A DNA stretch of 35,433 nt from Clostridia bacterium (GCA_045633305.1 JAZQYG010000093.1:1-35433); one strand, 5' to 3'. Numbered from the stretch's first letter, positions 4,827 to 26,817 are shown. A program made the numbers and translations. The notes: generated from the sequence alone by a model not told the origin.

Positions 4827-4827
4827 T

Positions 4828-4864: not shown

Positions 4865-4905
4865 AGGTATTTCGATATTTACTCAATTTATCAAAAAACG
4901 GAAAA

Positions 4906-6452: not shown

Positions 6453-6555
6453 TAATTAAATATACCCAAAACACAACAATATATAATATAATTAATACAC
6501 TAAGTAATAAAAACAATATAAATAGCAATCTGCGATTAAAAATGAAATCAAAATG

Positions 6556-6590
6556 AAAAAGCAAAACGAGAGGTTTGCTTTTTTTTATTT
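6556..6590. terminator. Terminator-like hairpin upstream of the accessory operon promoter
   Basis: AAAAAGCAAA-8 nt-TTTGCTTTTT followed by further T residues. Confidence 0.45.
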
Positions 6591-6605
6591 CAAAAAATGA
6601 AATAA
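6585..6605. promoter_or_regulatory. Candidate ROK-family operator O1 (TTATTT-N9-AAATAA)
   Basis: TTATTTCA-AAAAA-TGAAATAA, a perfect 8-5-8 palindrome in the NagC/Mlc operator format. Confidence 0.6.
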
Positions 6606-6685
6606 TTTAAAAAAACGAATATTTCCATAACAAATTTTTTCGTTAAAAAAATTTCAAAAATTCACAACTTTTTATAAAAAATGTA

Positions 6686-6713
6686 TTGACAAATTTTAGC
6701 AATATGCTATAAT
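6686..6713 (+). promoter_or_regulatory. Consensus sigma-A promoter of the ABC/surface-protein operon
   Basis: TTGACA-16 bp-TATAAT with extended -10 TG at 6705-6706. The palindrome TAGCA-ATA-TGCTA (6697-6709) covers the spacer and the start of the -10. Confidence 0.88.
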
Positions 6714-6752
6714 GCGTGCGAAGTGGAGAGACTCCACTTTATTTTGGAGCAA

Positions 6753-6773
6753 TTATTTCGCTAAAAAAAATAA
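6753..6773. promoter_or_regulatory. Candidate ROK-family operator O2 (TTATTT-N9-AAATAA)
   Basis: AATTATTT-CGCTAAAAA-AAATAATT in the transcribed leader. Confidence 0.6.
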
Positions 6774-6812
6774 TTAGTCAAAAATCAAAAAATTTAACTT
6801 TTGGAGGAAGTT

Positions 6813-8525
6813 ATGAAAAGAGCACTTTCAGTTGTAATTACGGTCGTTCTTGCGCTTGCTTGCATGGCAGGTTCGCTCGTTCTCTTTTCGGGCTGTGACG
6901 ACAACAATCCGTTCAAAATCGACCCGAATCGTACCCAACTTTATATCGGTGTAAAAGACGACGGTATCGGTAAAGATTGGGTATATGATGCAATCACTCA
7001 ATTTGAGGCAGAATATCCAAAGATTCAGGTAATTCCTAAATTTGAGGACACCCTTTACGAGGAAAAGAACGTTAAAACTACTATGCCCACCGCGAAAGAG
7101 AGCGTTTACGTCCTTTCTAGTTTGGACATTTATACTAGTTGGTTGACCAAAAATGCGGACGGAAGTTACTCTTCTCCGTATTTACTCAATCTCTACGATA
7201 TATTTAATGAAGACCCAGAAGGCGAGGAAAAATCTATTTTAGATAGAATGGACCAAGAAGAACGCGCTCACCTTACGTCTACCGACGCTAACGGTAATCC
7301 CGCAATTTATACCCTTCCATACTATGAAACTTACTGGGGCGCAATTTACGACCACAAACTATTCACGGCGGAAGGTTTATACAATCTAGACGGTTACGTC
7401 GGTATTGACTGCGAAGACGGAACACCCGACGATACGTACGGTCCTGACGGCGTTGCTAATACCTACGACGACGGACTTCCCGCAACTTGGGAAGATATGA
7501 AAATCTTGATGGACGTAATGGTAAGTAAAGGTATTACTCCTTTCACTTGGACTTATAACTATTACACCTATCAAACTCAATTTTTGAACTCGATATTCGC
7601 TATGTATGAAGGTAAAGAGGATTTCCTTCGTCGTTACACTATGACTGGCGCAGACGACGACCCGGCAATCGGCGAAATCGATTATACCAACGCATATAAA
7701 CTTGCTGACCAAGAAGGTCTTCGCGCTGCCGTTACCGTTGCAAAACACATAATGAGCAACGACCAGTATTATTCGAAGAACGCTACCTATTCTACTCAAT
7801 CTCACACTGCAGCTCAAGACGAGTTCATCACCAGTGTAAAAGCGCCCGGCGCTAAACCTATCGGTTTCTTGCTCGAATCCGGTTGGTGGGAAAATGAAGC
7901 AAAAGGAACTTTTGCGTCTATGGCTGCTATGTACGGTGAAGAATATGCATACGGAAACAGAGAATTTAAATGGCTTCCTTTCCCTAAATTCTTGGGTAGC
8001 CCCGATATAAAAGACCAAACCAACACCAAAACTACTATGTATAGCGGTGTAGGAACTGGTGGCGCTGGATGGCTTATAAGCGCAAACACCCCTGCTGAAA
8101 TCCTTCCTATCGCAAAAGATTTCGTTAAATTCTGCAATAGCGAAAGGATGTCTGCAAGATTTACCGAGATTACCGGTATTTGTAAGCCTTTGTCTTATTC
8201 TATGACTGACGAGCAAAAGGCAAATATGACCACCTACACTAGAACGATTTATGAAAACGTTCATAATCCTGAAGTTGAAAAGATTAGAGCAAGAACTAGA
8301 AACCCTCTTATCGTAAATGCTGCCAGTTACTTTACCGATTACTCTTTTAGAGCGGTAATCTTGAAAGGTACAAACCGTCAATCTTCAGAAAAGAACCCCT
8401 TCGATACCTTTAGAAACTATCCTGAACTTACCGTTGACCAGTACCTTGAGGGTATCAAAGCAGTTTACAACCAAAAAGAGTGGAACGACAAACTTTCACA
8501 ATGGTACTATCTTTTTAACGATTAA
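6813..8525 (+). CDS. Carbohydrate ABC transporter solute-binding lipoprotein (SBP family 1)
   Basis: GGAGG SD before ATG 6813, lipobox FSG-C, motifs LPYYETYWGAIYD, LPATWED, ESGWWENE; precedes two CUT1 permeases. Confidence 0.9.
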   Translation: MKRALSVVITVVLALACMAGSLVLFSGCDDNNPFKIDPNRTQLYIGVKDDGIGKDWVYDAITQFEAEYPKIQVIPKFEDTLYEEKNVKTTMPTAKESVYVLSSLDIYTSWLTKNADGSYSSPYLLNLYDIFNEDPEGEEKSILDRMDQEERAHLTSTDANGNPAIYTLPYYETYWGAIYDHKLFTAEGLYNLDGYVGIDCEDGTPDDTYGPDGVANTYDDGLPATWEDMKILMDVMVSKGITPFTWTYNYYTYQTQFLNSIFAMYEGKEDFLRRYTMTGADDDPAIGEIDYTNAYKLADQEGLRAAVTVAKHIMSNDQYYSKNATYSTQSHTAAQDEFITSVKAPGAKPIGFLLESGWWENEAKGTFASMAAMYGEEYAYGNREFKWLPFPKFLGSPDIKDQTNTKTTMYSGVGTGGAGWLISANTPAEILPIAKDFVKFCNSERMSARFTEITGICKPLSYSMTDEQKANMTTYTRTIYENVHNPEVEKIRARTRNPLIVNAASYFTDYSFRAVILKGTNRQSSEKNPFDTFRNYPELTVDQYLEGIKAVYNQKEWNDKLSQWYYLFND

Positions 8526-8575
8526 TATAATAACGAATTGACGTCCACAAACAAAAGCGACTTTTAAGGAAAATT

Positions 8576-9505
8576 ATGGAACAACAAACTGTTTACAAAA
8601 AAAAGAAAAACAAAATCCAACGCCGTAACGATTGGCTGTTTATACTGTCAATCGTTACCTGGCCGATAATCGTGTGGATTATTTTATACGTAGGCGCGCA
8701 CGGAAATCAATTTATAATGGCTTTCCAAGACTATAAACCCGAAACGAATACTTTCGTTATGTCTGGATTCCATAATTTGGAGGATTTTGTATATAACGTT
8801 TTTTACGACCCTGAACTTTCAGTTGCAATGCGAAATTCAATGCTCGTATATGCTATTGAACTTTTCTTCGGTATGCCTATATCGATAATAATTTCGTACT
8901 GTATCTATAAAAAGGTATGGGGCGCAGGCTTTTTCAAAGTCGTCCTTTTGCTCCCTTCAATCATTTCGGGAATCATTTGGGTTTTGATATTCAAGTACCT
9001 CGTAGAAAAAGGTCTTCCCGTTGCCCTGGGAAAAGTAGGACAAATGCCAAGTTTGATAACTTCGGCAAATACGGCGCTAGGAACAATGATTTTCTATTCA
9101 CAATGGATAGGCTTAGCGGGCAACCTAATTCTTTATACGGGTGCTATGAGCCGTGTTCCCGCATCTTTGGTAGAGTATGGAAAACTTGACGGACTTGGAG
9201 CGCTTAAAGAACTTTGGCATTTAACTATACCTTTGATATTCCCGACCATTACCGTTTTCTTGGTAACGGGTGTTGTAGGCATATTCACGAGCAGTTTAGC
9301 GACGTATTCCTTCCACGGAAGTAACGCGCCTGTCTCAACGTATACTACGGGATATTATTTCTTCATTAAAATATTTAACGCGCCGAGTATGGCTGAATAT
9401 CCGTATATTGCCGCAGGCGGTATGGTGTTCTCAATCGTTGCAACGCCGATAACCCTTTTCGTAAAGCATATGCTCGAAAAGTACGGTCCGTCGGTAGAAT
9501 ATTAA
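8576..9505 (+). CDS. Carbohydrate ABC transporter permease (MalF/UgpA-like)
   Basis: About six TM segments; EAA-loop variant LVEYGKLDG; HLTIPLIFP. Confidence 0.92.
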   Translation: MEQQTVYKKKKNKIQRRNDWLFILSIVTWPIIVWIILYVGAHGNQFIMAFQDYKPETNTFVMSGFHNLEDFVYNVFYDPELSVAMRNSMLVYAIELFFGMPISIIISYCIYKKVWGAGFFKVVLLLPSIISGIIWVLIFKYLVEKGLPVALGKVGQMPSLITSANTALGTMIFYSQWIGLAGNLILYTGAMSRVPASLVEYGKLDGLGALKELWHLTIPLIFPTITVFLVTGVVGIFTSSLATYSFHGSNAPVSTYTTGYYFFIKIFNAPSMAEYPYIAAGGMVFSIVATPITLFVKHMLEKYGPSVEY

Positions 9506-9518
9506 GGAGGGCAGGAAA

Positions 9519-10427
9519 ATGGCACAAAAAATAACTACTCTTGATAAGCAATCACAACGTTCCGTATTCGGCATCGTATCGACCTCCCTTCTTTCTTTAT
9601 ATGCAATAACTCTCATACTCCCCCTTTGTTGGGCGTTTATGAGCGCAATGAAAACCGACCTTGACTTTTTGTTCAATCCTCTCGGTTTTCCGAGCACAAA
9701 GGCAGGATGGCATCCCGAAAACTTTATAACGGCTTTCCAAAAAGCGTTTATCGTCGTTTATAGAGCGGACGGCTCTCAACACGTTGCGTATCTTCCCGAA
9801 ATGTTTATGTGGAGTTTTGTTTTTGCAGTAGGAACTACGCTCTTTAACGAAGTATCAAGATGTTGTTGCGCATACATTATGGCAAAATACAGAAAATACT
9901 GGCTCCCAAGACTTATGCACGACGTAATTATCGTATTGATGGTTATACCTTTGGTTGGTTCGCTTGGTTCTTCTCTTATCATTTATAAAGCAGTTGGAAT
10001 CTATGACAATATGATAATGTGGTTCTTGTTTTCAATGGGCTTTTCTGGTTCTAACGCCCTCATCTATTACGCGTCGTTTAGAGGCGTATCGTGGGGATAT
10101 GCGGAGGCAGCGTATATAGACGGAGCAAGTAACTACACCGTTATGTTTAGGATTATGATGCCTATGATAAGACCTATTATGATGGCGCATATGCTCTTAA
10201 CCTTTAAAGCCTTTTGGAACGATTATTCAACTCCGATGGTATACCTTCCCAGTTTCCCCGTTGTTGCATACGGTTTGTTCAAATTCCAAAACAGCGGTGA
10301 TAACGCGGTTACTATACCCGTTCAGATGGCTGCAAGTACTATGGTTGCAATGCCTATCCTTATTATGTACATAGCGTTTAGAAATCAACTCGTAGGTAAT
10401 ATGTCCATAGGCGGACTAAAGGGTTAA
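9519..10427 (+). CDS. Carbohydrate ABC transporter permease (MalG-like)
   Basis: EAAYIDGAS...IMMPMIRP, FWNDY, C-terminal MSIGGLKG; AAGGAGG SD. Confidence 0.94.
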   Translation: MAQKITTLDKQSQRSVFGIVSTSLLSLYAITLILPLCWAFMSAMKTDLDFLFNPLGFPSTKAGWHPENFITAFQKAFIVVYRADGSQHVAYLPEMFMWSFVFAVGTTLFNEVSRCCCAYIMAKYRKYWLPRLMHDVIIVLMVIPLVGSLGSSLIIYKAVGIYDNMIMWFLFSMGFSGSNALIYYASFRGVSWGYAEAAYIDGASNYTVMFRIMMPMIRPIMMAHMLLTFKAFWNDYSTPMVYLPSFPVVAYGLFKFQNSGDNAVTIPVQMAASTMVAMPILIMYIAFRNQLVGNMSIGGLKG

Positions 10428-10457
10428 TTCCAAGGAGTTTTCAATTTAGGAGAAAAA

Positions 10458-13400
10458 ATGAGAAAATCCAAGTATTTATTAAGTCTCGTTCTCGTCGTAG
10501 TGATGATTAGCGCAATAACCGCTATTTTTACGGGAACGGCAATAGGCGAAAGCGACGTTTTCGATACGGGCGCGTATTATACCGTTCAAGAAAACTTCAC
10601 TTCAGATAAAGTTGCCGATGCAAAAGCCGGAACTCTTATAACCGCTAGCGCAAGCGGGCAGGCTTTAAGATTCAAAAATTCTCTTGCGGGAGATTTTGAG
10701 GTAGAGTTCAGACCCCTTGCTCAAACGACGGGCACGCCCGATTTTACAAAAATAAGTTTCTACGTGCGTTCCAACGATAGCCGATACGGGTTTTATATGT
10801 ATTTGGAGCATACTGGCTTTGACGCGGAAACAAAACTTGAAAAAGTCAGATACGGACTTTCTCTCGTTATGCCCGAGCGTGTGTACGGTTGGGGTAAAGG
10901 ATTAACTAATCCCGGTCTAACGGAAACGTCGACGAGCAGTTTCATTAATCAAGGTGAAATTGCAAAAATGGGCTTTGACGTAGACAGCAAAGAAGTTTAC
11001 GTATACAATAGCGGCGTCAAAAAAGTAATGCTCGACCTTGATAGTGAAGCAAGCATGAACGCAAAACGTATGAATACTAACGTTTTGTACAAAGGATTTT
11101 CTTCGTATAACGTAGAAATAGTAGTAGACGGCATCACTGGCACGAACGCACAATTTTTGCTCTATTCGGTAAATGGCCAAAATCTTTCGGGAGCAAACAA
11201 TGCAGGCCCGTCCGTTTCTGGCAACCCCAGAATACCTAACGCCGTTTTGAATCAAGAATACGTAATCAATCCTTCTAGCGTAACGACTTTTGACTTTATT
11301 GATGGATTCAAGAGCGAATTTAAAGGAGAGATAAACGCAGTTTCGCCCGGCGGAGACGTTATTCCTTTCGTTAATAACAAGTTTACTCCTACGCAAACCG
11401 GTAGTTACGGAATAACCTTCCTTCCCGTGGACGACGCGGGCGTTCAAGGCGTAGCAAAGACTGTTGAAATCGACGTTCTTGGCGCGCAACCCGAACCCGT
11501 TCTCGAAATAGCGTATCCTTTATTTAATCAAACCGTAGCAAAAGATACTCTAGTTTATTTCCCATCCGCTACGGCATTTAGCAAATTAGATAAATATAAC
11601 ACTGCAATATCTCCCGTTCTTTCAATCAAAAAAGACGGAGCAGAAATAGTTTCGTATAGCGCTACCTCTTATAGTGAATATATGTTCACGGAAGAAGGAG
11701 AGTACGTTGTCGAAATTTCGGCAACCGACGTATACGGCGAAACGGTCAAAAAGAGCGCGACCATAACGGTGTCTTCCTCCGTTCCTTATTTGACCTTTGT
11801 AAAACAACCTAAAAGTATTTATTCTGTCGACACTTCTTTTACCGTGCCTGTGGCAAGAGTAGAGGGAGGTCAAGTAAGCACGATAATTGAATTCCCCGAC
11901 GGGAGAAGAGTTAATACCGATTGCGTTCAACTTGACGCTCTTGGAACGTACAAATTGACCTATATAGCAAACGTTAGTGGAAACACGTACGAATACGTGA
12001 GATACTTTAACGTAGACCGCTCTGCAGCCTCCCTTCTTACCAGTTATAGCGCAATCACTTCGGAAAGCGCAGTTTCTCCCGATTATTCAGCGGAAGAATA
12101 CAGAGGGGTAAAAATTACCGGTTCAAGAGCAATGTCAACGGCAAGGTGGGCAAACGTTATCGATTTGCGCGACAACACGAAAGATAACAAACTCATTGAA
12201 TTTTTCGTAATGCCTGAAGTTCAAGGCGAAAAGGAATATTCACAATTCCGTATCACGCTTACCGATATATATAACGATGCGAATAAAGTAATCCTTGAAT
12301 TTAACGAAGACAAAAACGCGGATAAATATAAATTAGATATCTCTGTTTGCGCAAATAAAGACGGCATCTTTGCTCCTCTTTCGAAGAATATCCGTATGAG
12401 CGTACAGGGAGCGTATAACTCAAGCAGAAGTTTTGGTTGGTATCCTGCAATTAGTTCGTACTTATATTACGACTATGCAACAAACACCATAGGCGGTGGA
12501 CTTCCTAACCAAAACAATACTACTCTCGGAAAGCATGATTTAGTTGATTTAACCGACGAAGAAGTAGTTGGAATAGGTAATGCGTTTAAAGGCTTCACGA
12601 CGGGCGAGGTTTATCTTGATATATCTTTCGTAACCCTCGCGTCTTCCTCTCCCGACATGCTCATTATGAACGTAGACGGACAGGACCTTTCTACCGAGTA
12701 CGTAGTTGACACTACCGCGCCCTTTTTCAGTATTGATTTTGAAGGTAACGACGAAAACGATTTACCTTTGGGTGTAGTTGGAACGGCATATCCTATATAT
12801 TCGGCTATAGCAAGAGACAACGTTGACGGTCTTTGCGTAAGCCCAGATATTAAAATTTACGCGTACGACGCGCTTGGAGGAAGAAGTCGTTATTTGAACG
12901 TAAGTGAAACTTCATTTATGCCGGAGCAAGGCGGTAAATACGGAATCGAATATACGGCAAGTGATAAACACGGCAACGTAGCAACTAAAACGATATACGT
13001 TGACGTAGTCGATACTCTTCCTTCCATTACTTACGACTGGATGGGAATAGAAGAGACCGCGGTAACGGGTGAAAAATACATAATCCCTGAAGGCGAATCA
13101 AGCGGTGGTAGTGGAAAACACAAAAAGACCTTGACCGTAACGTTAAACGACGAGCCTATCACGATTACTGATAATTCTTTCGTACCCGAAAAGGCGGGAG
13201 ATTATATCGTAACCGTAAAAATAGAAGATTACCTCAAAAACGTTTCGACTTTCACAAAAACTATTACCATATCCGCTAACCCCGAACCCGTATTCGTAAG
13301 AGGTACGGTGCCCGAGGCGGTGGTACTAAACAAAGACGTAGTATTTGCTCCGTGGAAAGCGTACGATTATTCTTCTGGAGACAAGGGAGAAATTCCCGTA

Positions 13401-14780
13401 ACGATTAAAGTTAAAAAACAAGGCGCGGACGAGTCGACGGCAACAACTTTAGGCTCAGACCGCAAGTTCAAAGCAACCGAGGTTGGCGTTTGGGAGATAA
13501 CTTTCTCTGCGTCTATCGTGGGTGGCGTGACGAGAGCGGAAACGTATACTTTCGTGGCTCTTGACCTTACCGCAGGTTCAAACGACAGCAAAACCTATTT
13601 GCACCTTGCTAATTACTTTGCGACCGAAAACTTAACCATTGAAAGGACTCCCGTATCGAGTGACCCCAACGAAAGAAGTTTCTATTTTGGTTTGAATACC
13701 TCGACGGAGGGAGGCTCGGCTACTTTCGTTAACGCTCTTCCTGCGGATGGATTTAACGTTAGATTTACCGTTCCTCAAAACGCAAACAATTTCGATAGAC
13801 TGGTTGTAACTCTCGTGGATAGTTTAAATCCCGAACAAAAACTTGTCTTTGAAATTCAAAAAGATGATGAGATAACAAAAATAGTAAATGGAAAACTTGC
13901 AATTCCCGAATATCCTACTTGTCCTATTTGGGTAAACGGAGAAGAACGTGAAATAAACGGTTCTTTCCGTGGATATACTGGAAGACCTTTTGAAATTAAC
14001 TATGATAACGATTCCTTCTTATTGCGAGATTACGTGGGTATCACCATAACGAATATACACAAAGGCGCAAACGGTTTAGAGTGGAAGGGATTTGAAAGTG
14101 GAAAGGTTTATATGAGCCTATCTTTTGTGGGGGTAACTGGTCCAAGTTCTATTAACCTCTCGGTAATATGCGACCAAGCGTTTAACCTCACGACTAAAAA
14201 GGATATTACGAAACCTACTATAATAATGCCTTCGTCAAAACCCGTTGAATTCGGCGAAATGCTCGTAATTCCCGCCGCGTCCGCCTTTGACGTTCTTTCA
14301 GACGTTGAGCAGTTCACCGTAACGGTAACTTCTCCCTCTGGTCAAGTGCTTATTAACAATCAAGACGCGACCAAGGAATATTCGATAGAAGCAAACGAAT
14401 ACGGAGATTATAACGTTAACTATTACGTAAAAGACTCCGTAGGCAACGAAACGACTGCGTATACCGCCTCTGGTTATATAGTAACCGTGCGTGACAAAAT
14501 TGCTCCCACGCTTACCATAAACGGAACGGTTTCCGAGTCTATCACGCCGAACAAAGAATTTACTCCTCCCTCTGCAACGGTAACCGACAACAGAGTAGGA
14601 GGCTCGGCAACGCTTACCGTTTACTGGATTCTTCCTAGCGGTGAAATGGTGACAGTTGGTGAAGATGGAAAAATTTCTGCCGACTACACTAAACAGGTAG
14701 GCAAATATACCCTCTTGTATTACGGAGAGGACGTTGACGGATATACCGTGATAGAGTCGTTCACCGTAATAGTAGGATAA
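10458..14780 (+). CDS. Large secreted multidomain protein (3 beta-sandwich-like modules interleaved with Ig-like repeats), function unknown
   Basis: Sec-type signal peptide. Three modules end in (Y/F/W)KGF...(V)...I-x-x-V/I-x-G/D-Q; recurring G-x-Y-x-I/V-x-Y/F Ig-like strands; DTTAP/DITKP/DKIAP linkers; no visible C-terminal anchor. Confidence 0.8.
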   Translation: MRKSKYLLSLVLVVVMISAITAIFTGTAIGESDVFDTGAYYTVQENFTSDKVADAKAGTLITASASGQALRFKNSLAGDFEVEFRPLAQTTGTPDFTKISFYVRSNDSRYGFYMYLEHTGFDAETKLEKVRYGLSLVMPERVYGWGKGLTNPGLTETSTSSFINQGEIAKMGFDVDSKEVYVYNSGVKKVMLDLDSEASMNAKRMNTNVLYKGFSSYNVEIVVDGITGTNAQFLLYSVNGQNLSGANNAGPSVSGNPRIPNAVLNQEYVINPSSVTTFDFIDGFKSEFKGEINAVSPGGDVIPFVNNKFTPTQTGSYGITFLPVDDAGVQGVAKTVEIDVLGAQPEPVLEIAYPLFNQTVAKDTLVYFPSATAFSKLDKYNTAISPVLSIKKDGAEIVSYSATSYSEYMFTEEGEYVVEISATDVYGETVKKSATITVSSSVPYLTFVKQPKSIYSVDTSFTVPVARVEGGQVSTIIEFPDGRRVNTDCVQLDALGTYKLTYIANVSGNTYEYVRYFNVDRSAASLLTSYSAITSESAVSPDYSAEEYRGVKITGSRAMSTARWANVIDLRDNTKDNKLIEFFVMPEVQGEKEYSQFRITLTDIYNDANKVILEFNEDKNADKYKLDISVCANKDGIFAPLSKNIRMSVQGAYNSSRSFGWYPAISSYLYYDYATNTIGGGLPNQNNTTLGKHDLVDLTDEEVVGIGNAFKGFTTGEVYLDISFVTLASSSPDMLIMNVDGQDLSTEYVVDTTAPFFSIDFEGNDENDLPLGVVGTAYPIYSAIARDNVDGLCVSPDIKIYAYDALGGRSRYLNVSETSFMPEQGGKYGIEYTASDKHGNVATKTIYVDVVDTLPSITYDWMGIEETAVTGEKYIIPEGESSGGSGKHKKTLTVTLNDEPITITDNSFVPEKAGDYIVTVKIEDYLKNVSTFTKTITISANPEPVFVRGTVPEAVVLNKDVVFAPWKAYDYSSGDKGEIPVTIKVKKQGADESTATTLGSDRKFKATEVGVWEITFSASIVGGVTRAETYTFVALDLTAGSNDSKTYLHLANYFATENLTIERTPVSSDPNERSFYFGLNTSTEGGSATFVNALPADGFNVRFTVPQNANNFDRLVVTLVDSLNPEQKLVFEIQKDDEITKIVNGKLAIPEYPTCPIWVNGEEREINGSFRGYTGRPFEINYDNDSFLLRDYVGITITNIHKGANGLEWKGFESGKVYMSLSFVGVTGPSSINLSVICDQAFNLTTKKDITKPTIIMPSSKPVEFGEMLVIPAASAFDVLSDVEQFTVTVTSPSGQVLINNQDATKEYSIEANEYGDYNVNYYVKDSVGNETTAYTASGYIVTVRDKIAPTLTINGTVSESITPNKEFTPPSATVTDNRVGGSATLTVYWILPSGEMVTVGEDGKISADYTKQVGKYTLLYYGEDVDGYTVIESFTVIVG

Positions 14781-14790
14781 GGAGGAAAGT

Positions 14791-16791: not shown

Positions 16792-16803
16792 TAGGAAAAG
16801 GAT

Positions 16804-18633: not shown

Positions 18634-18820
18634 GGCGCGCAAACAAATTGCGTAATGGTTGCGACGTGTTTATCAAGGACTAGCATCATAGATTCTTGAT
18701 GGATTTAGACGCAAACTTGACGGATTTGAAAGGAGCGCAGTCAAACGAAACGCGACTTTGGATGAGGTATTCGAGGACTAGAAAAGCAAACGCAAAGAGC
18801 AGACCTAATCGGAGGAAATT

Positions 18821-21800
18821 ATGAAAAAAGTATTATTTTTCGTCTTAATAATAGCCGTACTTACCGTCGGTTGTTTAGTTGGGTGTGACGGATGCTCGGA
18901 AGAGGAAATCACGGTTACGCTTAACAAAGAACAGGTGGTTATCAAAAAAATCGGCGGAACGGAACAACTAACGGCAAAGGTATCTAACGACGGCGCAGTA
19001 GAGTGGGCGTCGTTAGACGAGGAAATTGCAACCGTAACTCAAGAAGGTTTAGTAACTGCTCTTTCAAACGGAGTAACTCAAATTACGGCAACGAGCGGAG
19101 GAGTAACAGCCGTTTGTACCGTTGAGGTAAACGAACCGATAATTCCCGAGCCCGGACTAATCGTGAGTTTTTCAAAAACGTCCGCCTCCCTTAACGCATC
19201 GACGGGGGAAACTTATACTCTCGTACCTAACGTTCTCAAAAACAATCAACCTTTGAGCGAAGGCGTTACTTTAGAGTGGTCGAGTTCTGCTCCTGAAAAA
19301 GCGTCGGTAGTAAACGGTTTGGTTACCGCCCTTTCAAGCACAGAGCAAGGTGTACCCGTCGTTATAACTTGCAGGGCAACCTACGGAGACGAGTGGGCGG
19401 AAGCGCGTTTCTACGTAACGGTAAAAGACGACATTGATATCTTGTTCTTGACCGAGCAAACCAAATTTTATACCACGGATGCGGAAATTGCTCTTCCCGT
19501 GTCTGTAAAAATCAACGGAGTAGAGACAAGCGTAATTCCCGAATATTCTTCCACTGACGTTTCCGTTGCAAAAGTAGTGGCGGGCAAAATACTTCCCGTT
19601 GGCGCGGGTGAAGTTACGATTTTTGCAAACGTTAACGGTGAAGTTAAATCGTATCAAATAATCGTAAAACAAAAATTCTTCGTATCAAATGCGCAAGAGT
19701 TTATGAATATTTCAAAAGGTAGCGACAAGGTTACCTACGAATTAACTCAAAATATCGAACTAACTAACGCAAACGTACAAACCATGAATATAGGTGGAAC
19801 GGCTATAAAAACGGCTCTTACCTATTTTGTGGATTCGTTTAAAGGAGAACTTATAGGTAACGGCTACACGGTAAAATACGTATATACCGCGCCGTACGAC
19901 GGAGTAAACGTTACTTCGGATAGATTTATCGGATTGTTCAAAAATATCGAATCTACCGCTCTCATTAGAGAAACGGCTTTCGTAGGAGAGGTAACTTTTG
20001 ACTATCCTCACCAAATTGCATTTGCTCAAATCAACGAAGGCGTTATTGAAAACTGTTTCATAAGAACGGCTCGTAGACAATTAACCAGTGGCACTGGTTG
20101 GCAAGGGCATTATAACGTAGCGGGTTCAATGTTTGAAACCCAACACGGCACAATCAAAGATAGCGTCGTATACGGAGAGTTTTTCGCAGGAGGAACTACT
20201 TTGTCCGACTCTGGTGACAATATCGTAAGTTACGGAACGAAAAACTTTGGTAGATACGACAACGTAGCGTTTATATCTAAATTTAGTAGAATAGGTAACC
20301 ATACCGGAGCAAACTGGTCTTCCGCAATGGGTAAAGACGAATTCGTGAATTTCGTTTACTATCCAGGCGTAGAAGCCTTTATAGCAAAAGAAGGACAAAG
20401 AATCACTAATCCTAACGATTCGAGCAAATACGCGGAATACGTACGTACCGATTGTAACGACCAGACCTTTGATTCTTCGATATGGCAAATGAGCGAAGAA
20501 TACCTTTCGATAAACGGTAGAAAGGTTTGGGAAAAAGGAAACGTTACACTCAACCGTCAAGCAATAGCGCTAGTAGATGACGTTAGCGAAACCTTTACTC
20601 TCCTTCCTACTACGGACCATGCAGACAAACGATTCACTTATACCTCTCTTGATTCTTCCGTCGCAACGGTAAACGCAGAAGGTAAAGTTGAGTTTGTTGG
20701 AGCAGGTCAATGTAATATCGTAGCAAAACACTTTGTAACCAGTCAAACGGCTTTGCTTAAAGTGTACGCATACTCAAGCGTAACCGAAGTCAACACCAAA
20801 GACGGACTTTTGAACGCAATGAGAACTTCTACCGCAAGCACTGCTATCTCGCTCACGGGAGACGTTGAAATAACTCAAAGCGATTTTATTGAAGTAGTTG
20901 ACGAAAATGCGCAAGCGGGAGCAGTAAAACAAAAATTTGCTTACGCTGTAGAATCGTTTAAGGGCGCAATTATCGGCAATAGTCACAAGATAAGTTGGCA
21001 ATATAACGATTCAACTTCTTTCGTGGCAGGAGACCAAACCACCTATAGCGATATATATTTCAAAGGCGTAATTCAAAACCTTGAATCTACCGCGCTTATT
21101 ATCGATACCATTATAGAAGGCGAAAGCGTAATAGAAGGGGACGGCCAACCCGCTCTCATTAGTAACGTTTACGGTACGATAGAGAGTTGTTATATCAACT
21201 CCGTACGTCGTCAATTAACGTCTGGCGCAAATTATAGCGCGACTTCTGGTAACTGGAACGCAACTGCTGGAACGTTTGAGAAAAATGAAGGACTAATTGC
21301 AAACTGTATAATCGTATCCGACGCGTACAAAGCAGGAACGATTCGTGACTCTGCAAAACTCGTTTACAAAGGAGACGCATCAAAAGGTGAATTCAAAAAC
21401 GTAGCCCTCGTTCAATTCGGTGGCAAGAATGTCGGAACGAGAAACGGCGCAAACAATAACGGTCCTTTGTACGACTCTCATATGCAGGGGCTCGTTTGGT
21501 ACTCCTCGTTGAGTGAAATAGCAGAGGAAAAAGGTCAACTCGTTACTAATAAAGACCGTAATATGGTGTACGAGTACGAAGAGTATAACGCTCTTCAAAA
21601 CCTTGGCTCGGCTTGGACGATTAATCAAACTATGGACGACGAATACATTAAACTCGGAAACGTTACCATATGGCAAAAAGTCGTTATGGTAGACGACGAG
21701 GCGGACTTTATTTCAAAAGCAAGTTCGGCGCAATCAGGCACCATACTCAAATTAAGCAAAGATTTGACTTTTGATAGCGACGACTTCACCGTCGTTGATA

Positions 21801-22558
21801 ACGGCGCAACGGGAACGAAAACCAAAGACGCGTATATCGTTGAAACCTTAAACGCAAAACTTCTCGGAGACGGACACAAGATAAGTTGGTATTACAATAA
21901 ATCAACGGATTTCGTTCAAGGAGATAATTCAACTATAAGCGAAGAATCTTTTTGCGGTGTGTTTAAAACCGTGGGGCAAGGCTCGGTTATAAGTAACGTA
22001 CTTTTCGTCGGTGAAACCGTAGTCGATTTAGACGAACAACCCGCTTTTATTAGCACGCTCAACGGCAAGATAGAAAATTGCTATATTGACGTTGTTCGTA
22101 GACAACTTAGAAGCGGAAGAATTACCGACGACGGTAACGCTAACTGGCAAGCAGCAGGTGGACTTATAAAAGCAAACGAAGGCACGATAAATAGTTGCGT
22201 AATTTGGGCCAAAGGCTTGAACGGTAGTACGTCAACCACGGATGCCGGCGCAAAACTCGTGTTTAGAGGAACGACGGCAGGAAGGTTTACTAATATTGCA
22301 TATATCTCGGCAGATAGGAAGATTGCAAATAGAAATGGAGCAAACGAAAACTCTTATCTTCTTGGCGAACAAATGGACAACTTTGTATACTATGCAAGTT
22401 TGGCTAATTTAGTAAACGCAACTGGAAGCGAAGTAACCAACCCCGACGGAGCGAAATACGTATTCGTAGATTATACCGAAGCGCAAAATATAGGCTCGGC
22501 ATGGACTATAGACCAGTCGGGAATAAAACTTTACGATAAATACGTATATAACGCTTAA
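18821..22558 (+). CDS. Surface lipoprotein with Big_2-like Ig domains and three beta-helix-like repeat modules
   Basis: GGAGG SD, lipobox LVG-C. Ig motifs W-x-S-x-D-x-x-IATV...G-x-VTA...G-x-T-x-ITA. Three modules carry F-K-G-x-x-x-G-N/D-G/S-x-x-I and I-E-N/S-C-Y/F-I...RRQL(T/R)SG. Confidence 0.85.
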   Translation: MKKVLFFVLIIAVLTVGCLVGCDGCSEEEITVTLNKEQVVIKKIGGTEQLTAKVSNDGAVEWASLDEEIATVTQEGLVTALSNGVTQITATSGGVTAVCTVEVNEPIIPEPGLIVSFSKTSASLNASTGETYTLVPNVLKNNQPLSEGVTLEWSSSAPEKASVVNGLVTALSSTEQGVPVVITCRATYGDEWAEARFYVTVKDDIDILFLTEQTKFYTTDAEIALPVSVKINGVETSVIPEYSSTDVSVAKVVAGKILPVGAGEVTIFANVNGEVKSYQIIVKQKFFVSNAQEFMNISKGSDKVTYELTQNIELTNANVQTMNIGGTAIKTALTYFVDSFKGELIGNGYTVKYVYTAPYDGVNVTSDRFIGLFKNIESTALIRETAFVGEVTFDYPHQIAFAQINEGVIENCFIRTARRQLTSGTGWQGHYNVAGSMFETQHGTIKDSVVYGEFFAGGTTLSDSGDNIVSYGTKNFGRYDNVAFISKFSRIGNHTGANWSSAMGKDEFVNFVYYPGVEAFIAKEGQRITNPNDSSKYAEYVRTDCNDQTFDSSIWQMSEEYLSINGRKVWEKGNVTLNRQAIALVDDVSETFTLLPTTDHADKRFTYTSLDSSVATVNAEGKVEFVGAGQCNIVAKHFVTSQTALLKVYAYSSVTEVNTKDGLLNAMRTSTASTAISLTGDVEITQSDFIEVVDENAQAGAVKQKFAYAVESFKGAIIGNSHKISWQYNDSTSFVAGDQTTYSDIYFKGVIQNLESTALIIDTIIEGESVIEGDGQPALISNVYGTIESCYINSVRRQLTSGANYSATSGNWNATAGTFEKNEGLIANCIIVSDAYKAGTIRDSAKLVYKGDASKGEFKNVALVQFGGKNVGTRNGANNNGPLYDSHMQGLVWYSSLSEIAEEKGQLVTNKDRNMVYEYEEYNALQNLGSAWTINQTMDDEYIKLGNVTIWQKVVMVDDEADFISKASSAQSGTILKLSKDLTFDSDDFTVVDNGATGTKTKDAYIVETLNAKLLGDGHKISWYYNKSTDFVQGDNSTISEESFCGVFKTVGQGSVISNVLFVGETVVDLDEQPAFISTLNGKIENCYIDVVRRQLRSGRITDDGNANWQAAGGLIKANEGTINSCVIWAKGLNGSTSTTDAGAKLVFRGTTAGRFTNIAYISADRKIANRNGANENSYLLGEQMDNFVYYASLANLVNATGSEVTNPDGAKYVFVDYTEAQNIGSAWTIDQSGIKLYDKYVYNA

Positions 22559-22570
22559 AAGTCCACGAAG

Positions 22571-22605
22571 TTGACTATTGCAAAAGCAAATAAATATAGT
22601 ATAAT
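22571..22605 (+). promoter_or_regulatory. Internal sigma-A promoter for the small peptide and the 898-aa protein
   Basis: TTGCAA(22578)-16 bp-TATAAT(22600), or alternatively TTGACT(22571)-18 bp-TATAGT. Confidence 0.65.
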
Positions 22606-22610
22606 GTGTT

Positions 22611-22627
22611 TATAGCAAATTGCTATA
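22611..22627. promoter_or_regulatory. Palindromic operator candidate TATAGCAA-A-TTGCTATA
   Basis: Perfect 8-1-8 inverted repeat at the predicted +1; shares the core TAGCA-N3-TGCTA with 6697-6709. Confidence 0.6.
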
Positions 22628-22727
22628 CAAAGCGTATTATTAACTTTCAAAAATAAGCGGTTATCGCTTATAAATAAAAGGTTCTTGACGTATGTGACTC
22701 ACATATTTCATCATAAGGAGGTTTTTT

Positions 22728-22892
22728 ATGAAAAACTATCTTAAGCCGGAAGTTTACATAATGAACGTTTCGGCGCTAGAAGGTATATCGGCGACTTTTA
22801 GTTCGTTTGATTCCTTCTCCAGCCTTGCTGAATCGATAACGACTTATCAATTTGGTTCAGGTTTAAATTCTGCGGGAGGTGCAAATCAATGA
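22728..22892 (+). CDS. 54-aa small protein with N-terminal YxxP motif (missing from the ORF track)
   Basis: Perfect SD TAAGGAGG (22714-22721). Translation MKNYLKPEVYIMNVSALEGISATFSSFDSFSSLAESITTYQFGSGLNSAGGANQ. The TGA stop overlaps the next ATG (ATGA). Confidence 0.85.
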   Translation: MKNYLKPEVYIMNVSALEGISATFSSFDSFSSLAESITTYQFGSGLNSAGGANQ

Positions 22893-25585
22893 AAAAATAT
22901 AGCGTTGTATTATTCGTTGTAATGCTCCTTGCTTTGGCGCTCGTTGGTGCGTCTGCATACGCGGAAGGAATTGTAACTACCAACCCCGACATTTACGTAG
23001 GTGAATACGAGCACGGAAGAATTGATTTTTCTGACGACAAAGAAGTATTGATTGTGTTTGGTAGTGCGTCCATCGTAGAATCGGACGGCGTAACCGAGCG
23101 CGGTGTTGCTTTGACTTCGGGAGGAGAAACCAAATATTTCCCCGCAACTAACTACGACAAGACTAACGGAAACTTCGGTGTGGCTCTTATTAAATCTACT
23201 ATCCCCAGTGGCGATTACGTAGCAAAAGCGTACGCAGTAGTTGGCGGAATCGTTCAAGAAGGCGCGTCGCTCAATTTTGATTTCGATACGACTCTCACGG
23301 CAGATGAAAGTGAAATTACCGTAACAGCAAATCAATCCGTCGACCTCAAAAATTTCATAACCGTATCTGACGGCGACAAGGACGAAATCGTTTATACCGT
23401 TGCAACGGAAGATAGCGCAGTGCTTGCTATTAATAACGGCGTCGTTTCATACGTAAGCGGACACGGAACGGCTACGATAACTGCTAAACACGCATTTTCT
23501 GGAAGTTCAGTTGAATTTACTGCAACCGTTTGGGACAAAATCGTTCCTATAAACACTAAAGACGAACTTAGCGCGCTAGCAACCCTTACCACCGCGGATT
23601 CTTATGCGTATTTGACTGATGATATCGAAGTTAGTACCGCTGATATCGTTTCTGCGTCCGGCACTAACGTTACCGATACCGTCGTTCCCGGCGAATTCAA
23701 AGGAACCTTTGACGGTAAAGGATTCAAGGTCGGATATGCTTGGGACTACAAAGAAACTACTAGATGGAGTACAACAAGCGAGAACTCTTTCGGCGGTGTA
23801 TTTGAAAACATCGCGTTAGGCGCAACCGTACGTAACCTCGTTGTAGAAGGTATGAGCGTAGTTCCTTACGACTACGTAGCGCTCTTTGCACACACTAATA
23901 GCGGTTTAGTCGAAAACTGTTTCGTACAAGCAACTACCTTTGCATATTCAGGTAGAAATTACGCGGCTACCAGATTCATCTTTAATACGCAAGGCGGTGA
24001 AGTACGCGACTGCGTATTCAAAGTAGAAAGCGCATCTGGTACGGCAGCTTCTTTTGAAGATACGTATTCTGGTGTAGGCCTTCAACGTTACGGCGCAGGT
24101 CACTGGTACGATATCGCTTGGATATCTTACATAAAACGAGGCTCTTGGACGGGTGGCGTAAATACCGACAAACCTAATAAGCCTGACGGTCAACTTCATA
24201 ACGTAGTTTATTACGCAAACACTGCTAATTTTATTGCTGACGTTGGTAGTACTTATACTATTGCTACCGAGGGTAGCACTTCTGCAGACGGAACGACCGT
24301 ATACGACAAAGAAACCGACGTATTTACCGATATCACCGAACCTCAAACCCTTGGCTCATCTTGGGCAAAAGATTCGACTGAAGGCCTCAAATTCAACGGC
24401 GAGGTAGTACTTGCTCCGAGTTACAGTCAACTTGATTACGTTTCTACGGATAACGGTTCTATCGTGTTTACCGAAGCAGGTCAAAGTGAAACTATAAAAA
24501 TGTACTTCGCAGAAGAAGAAAGCCATTACTTCACTATGAGTACCGCAAATAGCGACGTTGCTACCGTTACTGCAAGTGGCAAAGTCACCGCAGTAGGCGT
24601 AGGCGCTACCACGATTACCGTTCGTCACGCTTTCTCGAATAAGACTATAACTATTCGCGTAGTATTTGCAGACCCTGAAAAAACTTATGCAATCTCTTCG
24701 GCAAGTGACTTAGTGTCGCTTGATACGACCAAAATGTCGTCTGGCAGTGCGTATGCATATCTTACCGGTCCTATTACCGTGACTAAAGCAGATATGATAA
24801 CCGTTGCAAATGGAAGTAATACTGAATACACCATAATTCCTCTTGCCGCTTACGGAACGAGCACCACTAGCGGATTTAAAGGCGTTCTTGACGGAAAGGG
24901 TTATCCTATTAATTACACCTTCGAAGCCACCGAGACCACCGAGAGTTTCATCGGTTTCGTTCGTAGCATAAGCGATAGCGGTCTTTTGAGAAACCTCGTT
25001 GTAAACGGCAATATAACTGCTCTTTCTTCGGGAACGGTTCAAATTACTTATTATAACAAAGGTCATATAGATAACTGTTTGTTTAATACTAACGTTAGCC
25101 AAACCGCTTCAGGAGGAACTTCCGGATATAGAACGCATATTGTTCAAAGAAACGCAGGCATAGTTAGAAATTCTATCTTTATAAGCAACTTCGATTATAT
25201 GGGAACGTATGAAACCAACACGGTACATTATCAAGCGCATACCGGATACAAACTTGAAAATTGCGCTCTCGTAGGTATTCACGAAAGAATAGCAACTATT
25301 AACGGTATTAACTGGGGTGCGATGGGTAGTGCAGACTACTACGGAATTTCAAGATACCTAAATCTCGAAAACTTTATTGCGGGCATAGGAACGAGAGTTA
25401 CTGGAGCGGCTATAGATGAGACTTCAACTCCCGCTAAATATGGCACGAGCATAAAATATTATCACACTCCGTTTACGGGTGTTGCTAAGAAAATTGGCAA
25501 GTTCGTCGTAGATTCGACCAACAAGACTATCACGATGGACGTAGACGGCGTAGACAAAGTAGTTTACACTACTCCTGCAAATTAA
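22889..25585 (+). CDS. Secreted protein with Ig-like domains and two beta-helix-like modules, paralogous to 18821-22558
   Basis: Signal peptide ending AYA, GGAGG SD, FKGTFDGKG and FKGVLDGKG modules with VRNLVV-G and ENC/DNC, Big_2-like STANSDVATVTASGKVTAVGVG; no anchor motif seen. Confidence 0.85.
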   Translation: MKKYSVVLFVVMLLALALVGASAYAEGIVTTNPDIYVGEYEHGRIDFSDDKEVLIVFGSASIVESDGVTERGVALTSGGETKYFPATNYDKTNGNFGVALIKSTIPSGDYVAKAYAVVGGIVQEGASLNFDFDTTLTADESEITVTANQSVDLKNFITVSDGDKDEIVYTVATEDSAVLAINNGVVSYVSGHGTATITAKHAFSGSSVEFTATVWDKIVPINTKDELSALATLTTADSYAYLTDDIEVSTADIVSASGTNVTDTVVPGEFKGTFDGKGFKVGYAWDYKETTRWSTTSENSFGGVFENIALGATVRNLVVEGMSVVPYDYVALFAHTNSGLVENCFVQATTFAYSGRNYAATRFIFNTQGGEVRDCVFKVESASGTAASFEDTYSGVGLQRYGAGHWYDIAWISYIKRGSWTGGVNTDKPNKPDGQLHNVVYYANTANFIADVGSTYTIATEGSTSADGTTVYDKETDVFTDITEPQTLGSSWAKDSTEGLKFNGEVVLAPSYSQLDYVSTDNGSIVFTEAGQSETIKMYFAEEESHYFTMSTANSDVATVTASGKVTAVGVGATTITVRHAFSNKTITIRVVFADPEKTYAISSASDLVSLDTTKMSSGSAYAYLTGPITVTKADMITVANGSNTEYTIIPLAAYGTSTTSGFKGVLDGKGYPINYTFEATETTESFIGFVRSISDSGLLRNLVVNGNITALSSGTVQITYYNKGHIDNCLFNTNVSQTASGGTSGYRTHIVQRNAGIVRNSIFISNFDYMGTYETNTVHYQAHTGYKLENCALVGIHERIATINGINWGAMGSADYYGISRYLNLENFIAGIGTRVTGAAIDETSTPAKYGTSIKYYHTPFTGVAKKIGKFVVDSTNKTITMDVDGVDKVVYTTPAN

Positions 25586-25610
25586 TTGCAGTAGAAGGCT
25601 AATTGACTAA

Positions 25611-25648
25611 TTAAAACGCTCTATGCCACTGGGCGTAGAGCGTTTTAA
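25611..25648. terminator. Long hairpin / terminator after the surface-protein genes
   Basis: TTAAAACGCTCTATGCC-actg-GGCGTAGAGCGTTTTAA, a 17-bp stem with one G-U pair. Confidence 0.75.
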
Positions 25649-25686
25649 CAAAGGCGCAAAAGCGCTTAATATTAACGGACGAAAAA

Positions 25687-26817
25687 ATGGAGAAAAAAAA
25701 TAATCGACGAGAAAACCGAGAATCGAACACAAGACAAGTGTTCAACTTGATATTGAGTGAGACAAACGGAATTTCACGTATTGATATATCTAAAAAAACA
25801 GGGCTTTCGGCAAGTGTAATCACGGGTATTGCAGATAAACTCATATCTGATAAATTAATTATCGAAAGCGGTGTTATAGAAAAAAAAGACGCAGGCAGAA
25901 AAGCCGTTCTTTTGAAAACGAATCCTTTTGGAGGATTTTTTGCGAGCCTTATTTTTGAAAAAAAGAAAATAAGACTTGAAGTATACGATTTGGCAAGAAA
26001 ACTGGACGCAAAATACGTAATTTCTGTTGATAGCGAAAAAATTACGGGTGATTTTCTTATTCAAGCAATTGAAGATGCCGTTCAGTACAATTATAAATAC
26101 GGAACCTTTTTTGGAATAATTCTCACTCTTCCTCCTTGGTGGATTGAGACCGAGTGCAAAGAGAGAACGCAAGAAGAATTCGGTTACTATTTCGAAGAAG
26201 GATTCAAAGAAAGACTGCACGCTTTTTATAAAGAAATCAAGATTTATACAGAGCCTTCTACCGCTATGGCCGCTTGCGCAAAACTTGATGAAGTAAAGTC
26301 GCAAACGAACGTAGTGTGCGTTGACTTCGATAAAGAAATTTATGCAAGTTTTATTTTGGGTGGTAGACTTTTTGATAAGCGACACTGCACGGATAAATTT
26401 GCAAACGCAATCATAAATCACGACCTTCTATCAACGGGAAAAGCAAGACTTAAAGACTATCTTTCGGAAGAGTCGATTTGCTCGCGTTTTATAGAAGAGA
26501 TAGGTGAAAAGTTATCCGTTAACGAAATTATTGAACGCTATAAAAGCGGAGAAGAAAAGACGGTGAACTTTATCAACAAAACCATTGAAATCTTTGCCCA
26601 AGGCATAATAGGTTTTGCAGAGATACTCGAGATAGATAGCATCATACTGAAAGGAACTCTAGCAAAAATCGGAAAATCTTTGGCGGATAAAGTAAAACAA
26701 TATTTCGTGGCTCTAGACCCCGCGTTAGAAAAAATTGAAATTTTAATTGAAAAAAACAACGAACTAGCAGGACTAGGCTCGGCGTACTTTGCCTTCAACA
26801 ACGTGTTTTCAAACTAA
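25687..26817 (+). CDS. ROK-family transcriptional regulator (XylR/NagC-like)
   Basis: N-terminal wHTH ISRIDISKKTGLSASVITGIADKL...LI-E...GRKA-LL, followed by a divergent sugar-kinase-like domain ending LAGLGSA. Confidence 0.85.
   Translation: MEKKNNRRENRESNTRQVFNLILSETNGISRIDISKKTGLSASVITGIADKLISDKLIIESGVIEKKDAGRKAVLLKTNPFGGFFASLIFEKKKIRLEVYDLARKLDAKYVISVDSEKITGDFLIQAIEDAVQYNYKYGTFFGIILTLPPWWIETECKERTQEEFGYYFEEGFKERLHAFYKEIKIYTEPSTAMAACAKLDEVKSQTNVVCVDFDKEIYASFILGGRLFDKRHCTDKFANAIINHDLLSTGKARLKDYLSEESICSRFIEEIGEKLSVNEIIERYKSGEEKTVNFINKTIEIFAQGIIGFAEILEIDSIILKGTLAKIGKSLADKVKQYFVALDPALEKIEILIEKNNELAGLGSAYFAFNNVFSN

Follow-up and report, generated by a model that had tools for sequence, protein, structure and literature searches.

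Clostridia of the Christensenellales type are widespread gut bacteria, most of which have not been cultured; their genomes are small and their diet is poorly known. Which glycans do they capture, and with what kind of machinery? The question takes a concrete form in one contig of a Clostridia bacterium (GCA_045633305.1 JAZQYG010000093.1:1-35433, contig C93), where ten co-oriented genes at positions 6813-26817 had been read, in a first-pass annotation made from the DNA alone, as a Sus-like glycan-capture system assembled from uncharacterised families. The entire contig of 35.4 kb (35,433 nucleotides) is called here the window. Our analysis indicates that the locus is probably a cassette akin to a Gram-positive polysaccharide utilisation locus (PUL), with a role in glycan utilisation in an uncultured gut Clostridia bacterium of small genome (1.4 Mb). 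What is new in the cassette is how known parts are put together, and not the kind of machine: it is a conserved architecture, with a triple-lectin tether as a core member, built around a known and barely explored glycoside hydrolase (GH) domain, DUF4838. It is undescribed in the literature that we found.

All ten plus-strand open reading frames (ORFs) are present, with the sizes and sorting signals given by the annotation (Table 1). They encode, in order, a substrate-binding protein (SBP), two permeases, a 1440-aa surface protein, two DUF4838 paralogues of 666 and 609 aa, a 1245-aa lipoprotein, a 54-aa peptide, an 898-aa secreted protein and a ROK-like regulator. The genes from that of the SBP to the second DUF4838 gene are separated by 10-50 nt, and further on by gaps of 187, 169 and 101 nt. 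Lipoboxes (LFSGC, LVAC and LVGC) and signal peptides were taken straight from the translations, and no LPXTG motif was found in the locus proteins. A unit of transporter, surface binder, enzyme and regulator genes without its own ATPase had been proposed, and such genes do lie together here, with no ATPase gene within 6813-26817. The host genome (1.42 Mb, 198 contigs, 94.9% complete) has its nearest relatives among Christensenellales/Christensenellaceae metagenome-assembled genomes. Contigs from gut metagenomes (four runs from four studies, the best-covering of which may be the source sample itself) cover 30 of 30 bins of the stretch at 90-99% identity, and a single contig of 12,012 nt spans 15536-26817. 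Because contigs of four studies cover the stretch, the locus can be regarded as real and an assembly chimera is rejected. The runs carrying it are labelled as bovine gut, gut and faeces metagenomes.

The two DUF4838 paralogues, 35% identical to each other, score 190.2 and 179.5 bits on PF16126 against a cut-off of 26.6, and in the 666-aa protein a GH67N/GH20b-like N-terminal domain precedes the DUF4838 TIM barrel. DUF4838 is the catalytic domain of the CAZy families GH163, founded by BT1035, and GH185, founded by Sp_0475 (PMC10570127). The view that the locus lacks a classical GH and consists of uncharacterised families is out of date, because the domain has since been assigned to these two families. 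BT1035 is an endo-β-N-acetylglucosaminidase that frees N-acetyllactosamine from complex N-glycans (PMC10570127; PMC10154615), and Sp_0475 is a cytoplasmic exo-6-sulfo-β-N-acetylglucosaminidase working through substrate-assisted catalysis, with Q174, H227, D309 and Y436 as key residues and R633 binding the sulfate (PMC10570127). These are the only two characterised members found in the literature, and both are active on β-linked N-acetylglucosamine (GlcNAc) (PMC10570127).

In an alignment of 90 DUF4838 proteins, with positions numbered as in the 609-aa enzyme, H182, D243 and Y369 are invariant and, like N271, Y297, W357 and a set of four cysteines, conserved in both clades of the family tree. 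H182, D243 and Y369 are retained in the 609-aa enzyme together with C210/C248/C250/C253, and H228, D288 and Y440 in the 666-aa enzyme together with the same Cys4 cluster; the spacing between Asp and Tyr is 126 residues in the 609-aa numbering and 127 in Sp_0475. From the conserved His/Asp/Tyr and this spacing, and through an indirect mapping, both enzymes look catalytically intact. The same alignment leaves a single invariant carboxylate in the barrel, which would fit a mechanism without an enzyme nucleophile. The cysteines form a motif of their own, Cys-x37-Cys-x-Cys-x2-Cys, which lies beside the invariant Asp in 90 of the 90 proteins, surface and cytoplasmic ones included, and is probably a structural metal site.

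One enzyme copy had been placed at the surface and the other in the cytoplasm, and the sorting signals agree: the lipobox belongs to the 666-aa paralogue, and only the 609-aa paralogue is devoid of a signal peptide, a GH185-type location. A quick maximum-likelihood tree of the 90 proteins places the 38 that are linked to cassettes together on the same side of one branch (SH-aLRT 93), and on this evidence they form a clade of their own. The window enzymes are 25-28% identical to Bacteroidota proteins that join DUF4838 to an F5/8 type C domain, which served as a proxy for BT1035 and lie in a separate clade of the tree; neither paralogue matches PF00754 (F5/8 type C), a domain present in the Bacteroidota relatives L026, L032 and L070. 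Searches of the PDB by sequence gave no DUF4838 structure, and single-sequence searches with the window enzymes gave nothing useful. The family profile reaches only the N-terminal regions of GH115, GH67 and GH84 proteins in the PDB, and an ESM Atlas search with the 609-aa enzyme returned only "DUF4838".

The 1440-aa protein is encoded between the permease and enzyme genes. Its N-terminus is hydrophobic and carries neither lipobox nor LPXTG motif. A search of the PDB with the single sequence gave nothing useful, and Foldseek on the whole multi-domain model gave generic immunoglobulin (Ig)-array matches only. The model itself (AlphaFold2, residues 447-1440, from an input alignment of 21 cassette homologues; pLDDT 82.1) was compared by VIA-align with 48,161 chains, and two domains of about 220 residues were predicted to have the legume, or L-type, lectin fold. 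Hidden Markov models of these two domains cross-match and also recognise a third region close to the N-terminus, which places lectin-fold domains at approximately residues 40-250, 516-746 and 1048-1259, with Ig/PKD-like domains between them and after the last. The protein is, as modelled, a membrane-tethered array of three L-type-lectin-fold domains, with a ConA-like fold of ~220 residues each, and these domains would be expected to bind glycans.

The import genes complete the core. As a single sequence the SBP has no match in Pfam and gave no useful result against the PDB; a profile of 19 cassette SBPs matches family-1 sugar-binding proteins in the PDB, the top one being 9h0n (E 9e-27), and identifies it at the profile level as a family-1 sugar binder. 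The entry 9h0n is attributed to a Bifidobacterium infantis binder of fucosylated lacto-N-biose blocks (bioRxiv 10.1101/2025.02.07.637197). The SBP ORF opens at 6801 or 6813, and the ATG at 6813, preceded by GGAGG, is the likely start. In NCBIfam the permeases give UgpA/MalF-like and GlcU/MalG-like matches, both under their cut-offs. An ATP-binding cassette (ABC) ATPase gene occurs beyond the locus, at window 32108-32977, and its product has no match to the MalK OB domain or any other TOBE-type family. Genome-wide, OB_MalK is matched exactly once, at C103:2603-3757, by an ATPase of 384 aa with ABC_tran, OB_MalK and TOBE_2 domains, whose gene is flanked among the scanned neighbours by ThiT-like and GGGtGRT genes and has no transporter partners there. 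This orphan of the MalK/MsmK type would serve as the energy source of the cassette importer, in line with the earlier idea of a borrowed MsmK-type ATPase.

Does this association of genes exist elsewhere? We compared 79 related loci, which derive from the best 80 of 502 confirmed relatives and are biased to near kin, taking the SBP, the two permeases, the lectin array and the DUF4838 lipoprotein as the core. All five core genes occur in 20 of the 79 loci, colinear in 19 and rearranged in one (L008). Five further loci are cut by contig ends, with the lectin-array gene still adjoining DUF4838. The remaining 54, two of which are very short contigs, show only DUF4838; their sources are other Bacillota, the Bacteroidota, Armatimonadota and Planctomycetota, and further phyla. 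The N-terminus of the first DUF4838 protein in a cassette is almost always of the lipoprotein type, and the second, where present, has no signal peptide. We also sampled 201 genomes of the order: the lectin-array profile has matches in 32 of them at 1e-10, and full-length homologues occur in 10, with one to four copies each. In L008, the closest full relative, two abutting ORFs of 930 and 460 aa (L008:3882-8056) make up the lectin-array gene and the SBP gene comes after the ROK gene, which may reflect rearrangement, a frameshift or an assembly error.

Two more cassettes exist in the genome of the window itself, which holds five DUF4838 genes in 1.4 Mb. On contig C11 (~5898-15661, minus strand) the order is SBP, permease, permease, lectin array, DUF4838 lipoprotein and Big_2 lipoprotein, followed by genes for a GH78-like six-hairpin protein, a WbsX-like protein and a weak 3-keto-disaccharide-hydrolase-like protein. 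On contig C168 (6746-16441) it is lectin array, cytoplasmic DUF4838, lipoprotein DUF4838 and Big_2 lipoprotein, with PIG-L deacetylase, D-lyxose isomerase and AraA-C-like genes upstream. Since the same core order recurs in related loci and twice in this genome, the clustering goes beyond chance; co-occurrence elsewhere had been named as a check on the proposed system, and the loci, cassettes and genomes counted here bear it out. The setting is catabolic: the 79 plus-strand ORFs flanking 19 related cassettes include GH36/melibiase, GH3, GH31, GH2, GH78-like, GtaA-like, GH112, GH94 and GH4 genes.

Table 1. Genes and candidate control elements of the DUF4838 cassette (window positions).
Feature	Position	Strand	Details
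Promoter P1	6686-6713	+	TTGACA-16-TATAAT, 12/12 match, extended TG
Operator-like palindrome O1, TTTAGCAATATGCTATA	6695-6711	+	two-mismatch copy over the spacer and -10 of P1
SBP lipoprotein of CUT1-type sugar ABC importer	6813-8525	+	570 aa from ATG 6813; lipobox
ABC permease	8576-9505	+	PF00528, E 6.3e-08
ABC permease	9519-10427	+	PF00528, E 6.7e-11
1440-aa surface protein, proposed glycan capture	10458-14780	+	signal peptide/anchor; three L-type-lectin-fold domains
DUF4838 surface lipoprotein, putative glycosidase, 666 aa	14791-16791	+	PF16126, E 6.7e-56; PF03648, E 1.3e-3; lipobox LVAC
Cytoplasmic DUF4838 protein, putative glycosidase, 609 aa	16804-18633	+	PF16126, E 1.2e-52; signal peptide absent
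1245-aa lipoprotein	18821-22558	+	N-terminal Big_2 (E 1.9e-16), then three ~290-aa β-helix modules
Promoter-like site P2	22578-22605	+	TTGCAA-16-TATAAT; ahead of the 54-aa ORF; listed together with O2 as 22571-22627
Perfect 17-bp palindrome O2, TATAGCAAATTGCTATA	22611-22627	+	just after P2
54-aa ORF	22728-22892	+	AAGGAGG ribosome-binding site; stop overlaps ATG of 898-aa gene
898-aa secreted protein	22889-25585	+	signal peptide, ~100-aa N-domain, Big_2-like domain, two β-helix modules
Hairpin AACGCTCTA...TAGAGCGTT	25613-25647	+	GC-containing, T-rich tail; after 898-aa gene
ROK-like regulator	25687-26817	+	PF00480, E 8.1e-07; HTH_24, E 0.006, N-terminal winged-helix region

The locus also carries signs of its own control. 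Copies of the 17-bp palindrome with no more than two mismatches number three in the 1.42-Mb genome, all of them within the locus and two at promoters, and a congeneric genome (L091) has an element like O2 in the corresponding position. The palindrome is likely the operator of the ROK-like protein, the only regulator present in the locus. This divergent protein scores 29.3 bits on PF00480 (cut-off 22.9), over residues 257-339 only, gives partial Mlc/NagC matches in NCBIfam that lie far under their cut-offs, and contains neither the Cys-rich zinc motif nor the DxGxT (ATP) motif of the family. The hairpin behind the 898-aa gene was read from the sequence, its loop being longer than the pattern scan permits, and is a probable terminator separating that gene from the regulator gene. 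With P1, P2 and this hairpin with its T-rich tail, the locus most likely comprises three transcription units.

Two minor features accompany these sites. The third copy of the palindrome (GATAGAAAATTGCTATA, two mismatches) lies at 22069-22085, in the 3′ end of the 1245-aa gene and some 540 nt upstream of O2, and could be an auxiliary operator for looping. Downstream of P1 and ahead of the SBP start, the leader can be drawn at 6723-6749 as either of two small hairpins that exclude each other, one as GTGGAG-AGA-CTCCAC followed by TTTATTTT, the other as CTCCAC-TTTATTTT-GGAG, and together they could be an attenuator. A scan of the window against Rfam at gathering thresholds matched only one tRNA, and hence no riboswitch in the leaders of the locus.

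The 1245-aa and 898-aa proteins share a module of ~290 residues, found at residues 286-571, 651-943 and 951-1244 of the former as internal repeats, and at 215-507 and 598-893 of the latter, on either side of a Big_2 domain (512-595). The module matches no Pfam family, and a profile made from its alignment had no match in a sequence search of the PDB. Its modelled fold resembles the β-helix domain of IgA1 proteases and of BACOVA_03286 (PDB 3n6z, 7uvk, 7jgj), the assignment for the 1245-aa protein being taken from the homologous modules of the 898-aa one; Foldseek on whole multi-domain models gave weak matches to GH110/PL6 β-helices. Against 1.84 billion representative sequences, the module profile retrieves 578 proteins at E <=0.001 and 96 at <=1e-10, most of them large and multi-copy, with Big_2 in 8 of the 10 scanned in Pfam. 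Conserved positions in 77 non-redundant copies of the module look structural (an FxGxLDGxG cap, GxxENC and Asn/Tyr/Gly). A role as lyases or hydrolases is less likely, as outside the cap motif these 77 copies share no cluster of conserved charged residues, and for this reason we favour a binding or spacer role. Homologues of the 898-aa protein were matched in 8 of the 201 sampled genomes, including three of three congeners; a scan of metagenome contigs with this protein gave 31 pattern matches and no confirmed one.

How does the cassette compare with known systems? With GH163 and its founder it shares the DUF4838 catalytic domain, a GH67N/GH20b-like N-terminal domain, a surface location and, presumably, a first cut before import (PMC10154615; PMC10570127). 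It differs in that BT1035 has an F5/8 type C domain, absent from the window proteins, which are distant in identity from the Bacteroidota architecture and reach half of its PF16126 bits; moreover, the surface enzyme of the window is a Firmicute lipoprotein coupled with an ABC importer and not with SusC/D. The likeness to GH185 lies in the DUF4838 domain, with a conserved His/Asp/Tyr set that may correspond to the one in Sp_0475, to judge by the Asp-Tyr spacing, and in the 609-aa paralogue, which has no signal peptide, like cluster 3 of the paper describing Sp_0475, a sequence-similarity cluster set at over 30% identity and E below 1e-74 (PMC10570127). By contrast, no sulfatase or sulfo-sugar genes were found in this genome, and the window enzyme belongs to a cassette with ABC, lectin and lipoprotein genes beside a surface paralogue. 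A ROK gene presumably stands near Sp_0475 in Streptococcus pneumoniae too.

Gram-positive PULs, known from Roseburia/Eubacterium, Bifidobacterium and Streptococcus, are defined by the co-location of carbohydrate-active enzyme, transporter and regulator genes, and typically combine a CUT1 ABC importer with a shared MsmK-type ATPase. The window cassette resembles them in having an SBP, two permeases, predicted glycoside hydrolases and a local regulator, with the ATPase elsewhere, and its transporter, enzyme and regulator genes are adjacent and co-oriented. It differs from them in that an N-terminally tethered triple-lectin protein is a fixed core member, the only recognisable enzymes are of the DUF4838 type, accessory β-helix proteins are present, and the cassette is multiplied in small genomes. 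The name "Sus-like" holds as an analogy of logic, for both arrangements would use surface binders, a surface endo-enzyme, oligosaccharide import, internal exo-enzymes and a local regulator; it fails as a description of parts, since no SusC/TonB or SusD family was found by Pfam in the ten proteins, there is no outer membrane, and anchoring relies on lipids or signal anchors. Finally, unlike IgA1 proteases and BACOVA_03286, the β-helix proteins of the window have no protease domain and carry two to three tandem modules with Big_2 spacers. It had been said that a match to characterised CAZy families within a described locus would refute the proposed system; the families are indeed characterised, and no paper describing the cassette was found.

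From these parts a working scheme can be proposed. The membrane-tethered 1440-aa protein would hold a glycan at the cell surface through its three lectin-fold domains, while the 1245-aa lipoprotein and the 898-aa secreted protein may supply additional binding or spacing surfaces. The DUF4838 lipoprotein, which has the domain, the location signal and the His/Asp/Tyr set, would then make the first, extracellular cut. The family-1 SBP would catch the fragment and the two permeases would import it, presumably powered by the C103 ATPase, after which the signal-less 609-aa paralogue would complete the breakdown in the cytoplasm. The ROK-like protein would repress two units, one running from the SBP gene through the 1245-aa gene, the other comprising the 54-aa ORF and the 898-aa gene, by binding the palindrome that overlaps P1 or follows P2.

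What the enzymes cut is a harder question. By homology with GH163 and GH185, they may target a β-linked N-acetylhexosamine (HexNAc) by substrate-assisted catalysis; this is the favoured substrate class, although we grant it somewhat less than an even chance. A PIG-L gene beside one paralogue cassette and GH112 genes beside two related cassettes support it, as does the attribution of 9h0n, the nearest solved relative of the SBP, to a binder of lacto-N-biose blocks. Several observations weigh against this picture. Searches of the 94.9%-complete genome gave one GH2 gene and no match for nagA, nagB (PF01182), GH20, GH29, GH112 or sulfatase, and a simple scheme in which GlcNAc is harvested and burned would therefore lack the downstream genes that normally go with it. 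By profile, the solved structure closest to the enzymes is a GH115 α-glucuronidase (7pxq, E 1.2e-4, N-terminal part only), which leaves room for a specificity other than HexNAc. The window enzymes obtain ~180-190 bits on PF16126 against 350-362 for Bacteroidota proteins of BT1035-like architecture, and must for that reason be considered divergent members; their residues were mapped onto Sp_0475 by spacing and conservation instead of by direct alignment, and equivalents of Gln174 and of the sulfate-binding R633 were not identified. Regarding the wider architecture, a β-helix module lies downstream of DUF4838 in only 5 of 23 cassettes examined (in L016 it lies upstream of the cassette) and is an accessory part, not a core one, and a ROK homologue stands beside the cassette in only one of the 79 related loci (L008). 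It is on account of the gene absences, the GH115 kinship and the gut labels of the metagenome runs that we hold the β-HexNAc target only tentatively.

These same facts invite another interpretation, in which the architecture works as proposed and the DUF4838 enzymes of the cassette clade are not hexosaminidases; they would cleave some other linkage, for instance in a uronic-acid, plant or microbial glycan of a herbivore-gut diet, and would represent a new specificity or GH family. The lack of nagA, nagB, GH20 and sulfatase genes would suit this interpretation, as would the separation of the cassette clade from the DUF4838 proteins of other phyla (with 25-28% identity to the Bacteroidota ones bearing F5/8-C), the provenance of the runs from bovine gut, gut and faeces, and the mostly plant-glycan-type GHs among the neighbour genes (GH78-like, GH36, GH3, GH31). 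We nevertheless consider it unlikely, given that both characterised DUF4838 enzymes are β-GlcNAc-active (PMC10570127; PMC10154615), that His/Asp/Tyr and the single invariant barrel carboxylate are family-wide, that the PIG-L de-N-acetylase and the GH112 genes point to HexNAc sugars, and that the GH115/GH67 matches cover mainly the shared N-terminal domain. A very improbable interpretation is that the locus serves the cell envelope, with its Ig, lectin and β-helix proteins as adhesins or an envelope layer, and with the DUF4838 pair trimming a wall glycopolymer of the cell whose fragments the ABC system would re-import. S-layer proteins and adhesins (Sap, SbsC, SraP, PfbA) are indeed among the Foldseek matches of the multi-domain models, the β-helix module does resemble a non-catalytic domain of surface proteases, and the lack of nagA/nagB would suit salvage over catabolism. 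However, Ig-array matches are generic, a dedicated repressor-type operator is present, and the cassette occurs in only 10 of the 201 sampled genomes of the order. Moreover, a genome has three to four divergent copies, each near different catabolic enzymes (rhamnosidase-like, isomerases, GH36, GH3, GH2, GH112), which is the pattern of substrate-specialised PULs and not of one housekeeping recycling system.

With the glycan-utilisation cassette as the preferred reading, a further step can be considered. It is possible, although well short of probable, that the cassette clade constitutes a GH group outside GH163 and GH185 with its own specificity, and that together with the triple-lectin tether it defines a "lectin-array PUL" that is present in several copies and confined to the lineage of Christensenellales-type gut Clostridia. 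If true, this would be a third architecture for surface glycan capture beside SusC/D PULs and ordinary Gram-positive PULs, each copy tuned to a different glycan. The presence of three cassettes and five DUF4838 genes in 1.4 Mb suggests that this enzyme type is central to the niche of the host. The clade pairs surface and cytoplasmic enzymes with a lectin and an SBP, a combination through which the natural substrate could be revealed, and the lectin-fold and β-helix modules are candidates for new families of carbohydrate-binding modules. The cassette extends the concept of the Gram-positive PUL and overturns no current idea.

A smaller element of the locus deserves mention. The 54-aa ORF, which starts MKNYLKPEV and corresponds to the "YxxP" peptide of the first-pass annotation, has a strong ribosome-binding site and is translationally coupled to the 898-aa gene, judging from the overlap of stop and start. 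It belongs to a peptide family, 50-55 aa in length and marked by MKxYxKPxL, [FW]GSF and ITSYxYGSG, whose homologues occur only in one genus: eight copies in 4 of the 201 genomes (that of the window and three of three congeners), with two to four in each. Six of the eight copies sit 0-13 nt ahead of a gene for a secreted protein, to which most copies are translationally coupled, and these partners share the N-domain of ~100 residues of the 898-aa protein, with YxGEY, IVFG and GKFGVA. The other family copies are found at C6:267-428 of the genome that holds the window and in loci L091, L101-L103, L105 and L106, and that on C6 stands instead before a cytoplasmic-looking gene. Complex prediction for the peptide with the N-domain of the 898-aa protein gave scores of 0.55, 0.02 and 0.55 against 0.37 for a control, which is no evidence either way. 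The peptide and its secreted protein may form a genus-specific pairing attached to one of the cassettes, a novel element.

As for the surroundings, the window begins next to dnaN, and its first 6 kb (dnaN, DUF975, GH77 and phosphatase genes; window 1-6200) have a G+C content of 29-37%, against 40-45% in the locus and downstream. The locus is no compositional island relative to its downstream flank. The tRNA gene of the window, at 4751-4823, lies between a histidine-phosphatase gene and a CLC-channel gene.

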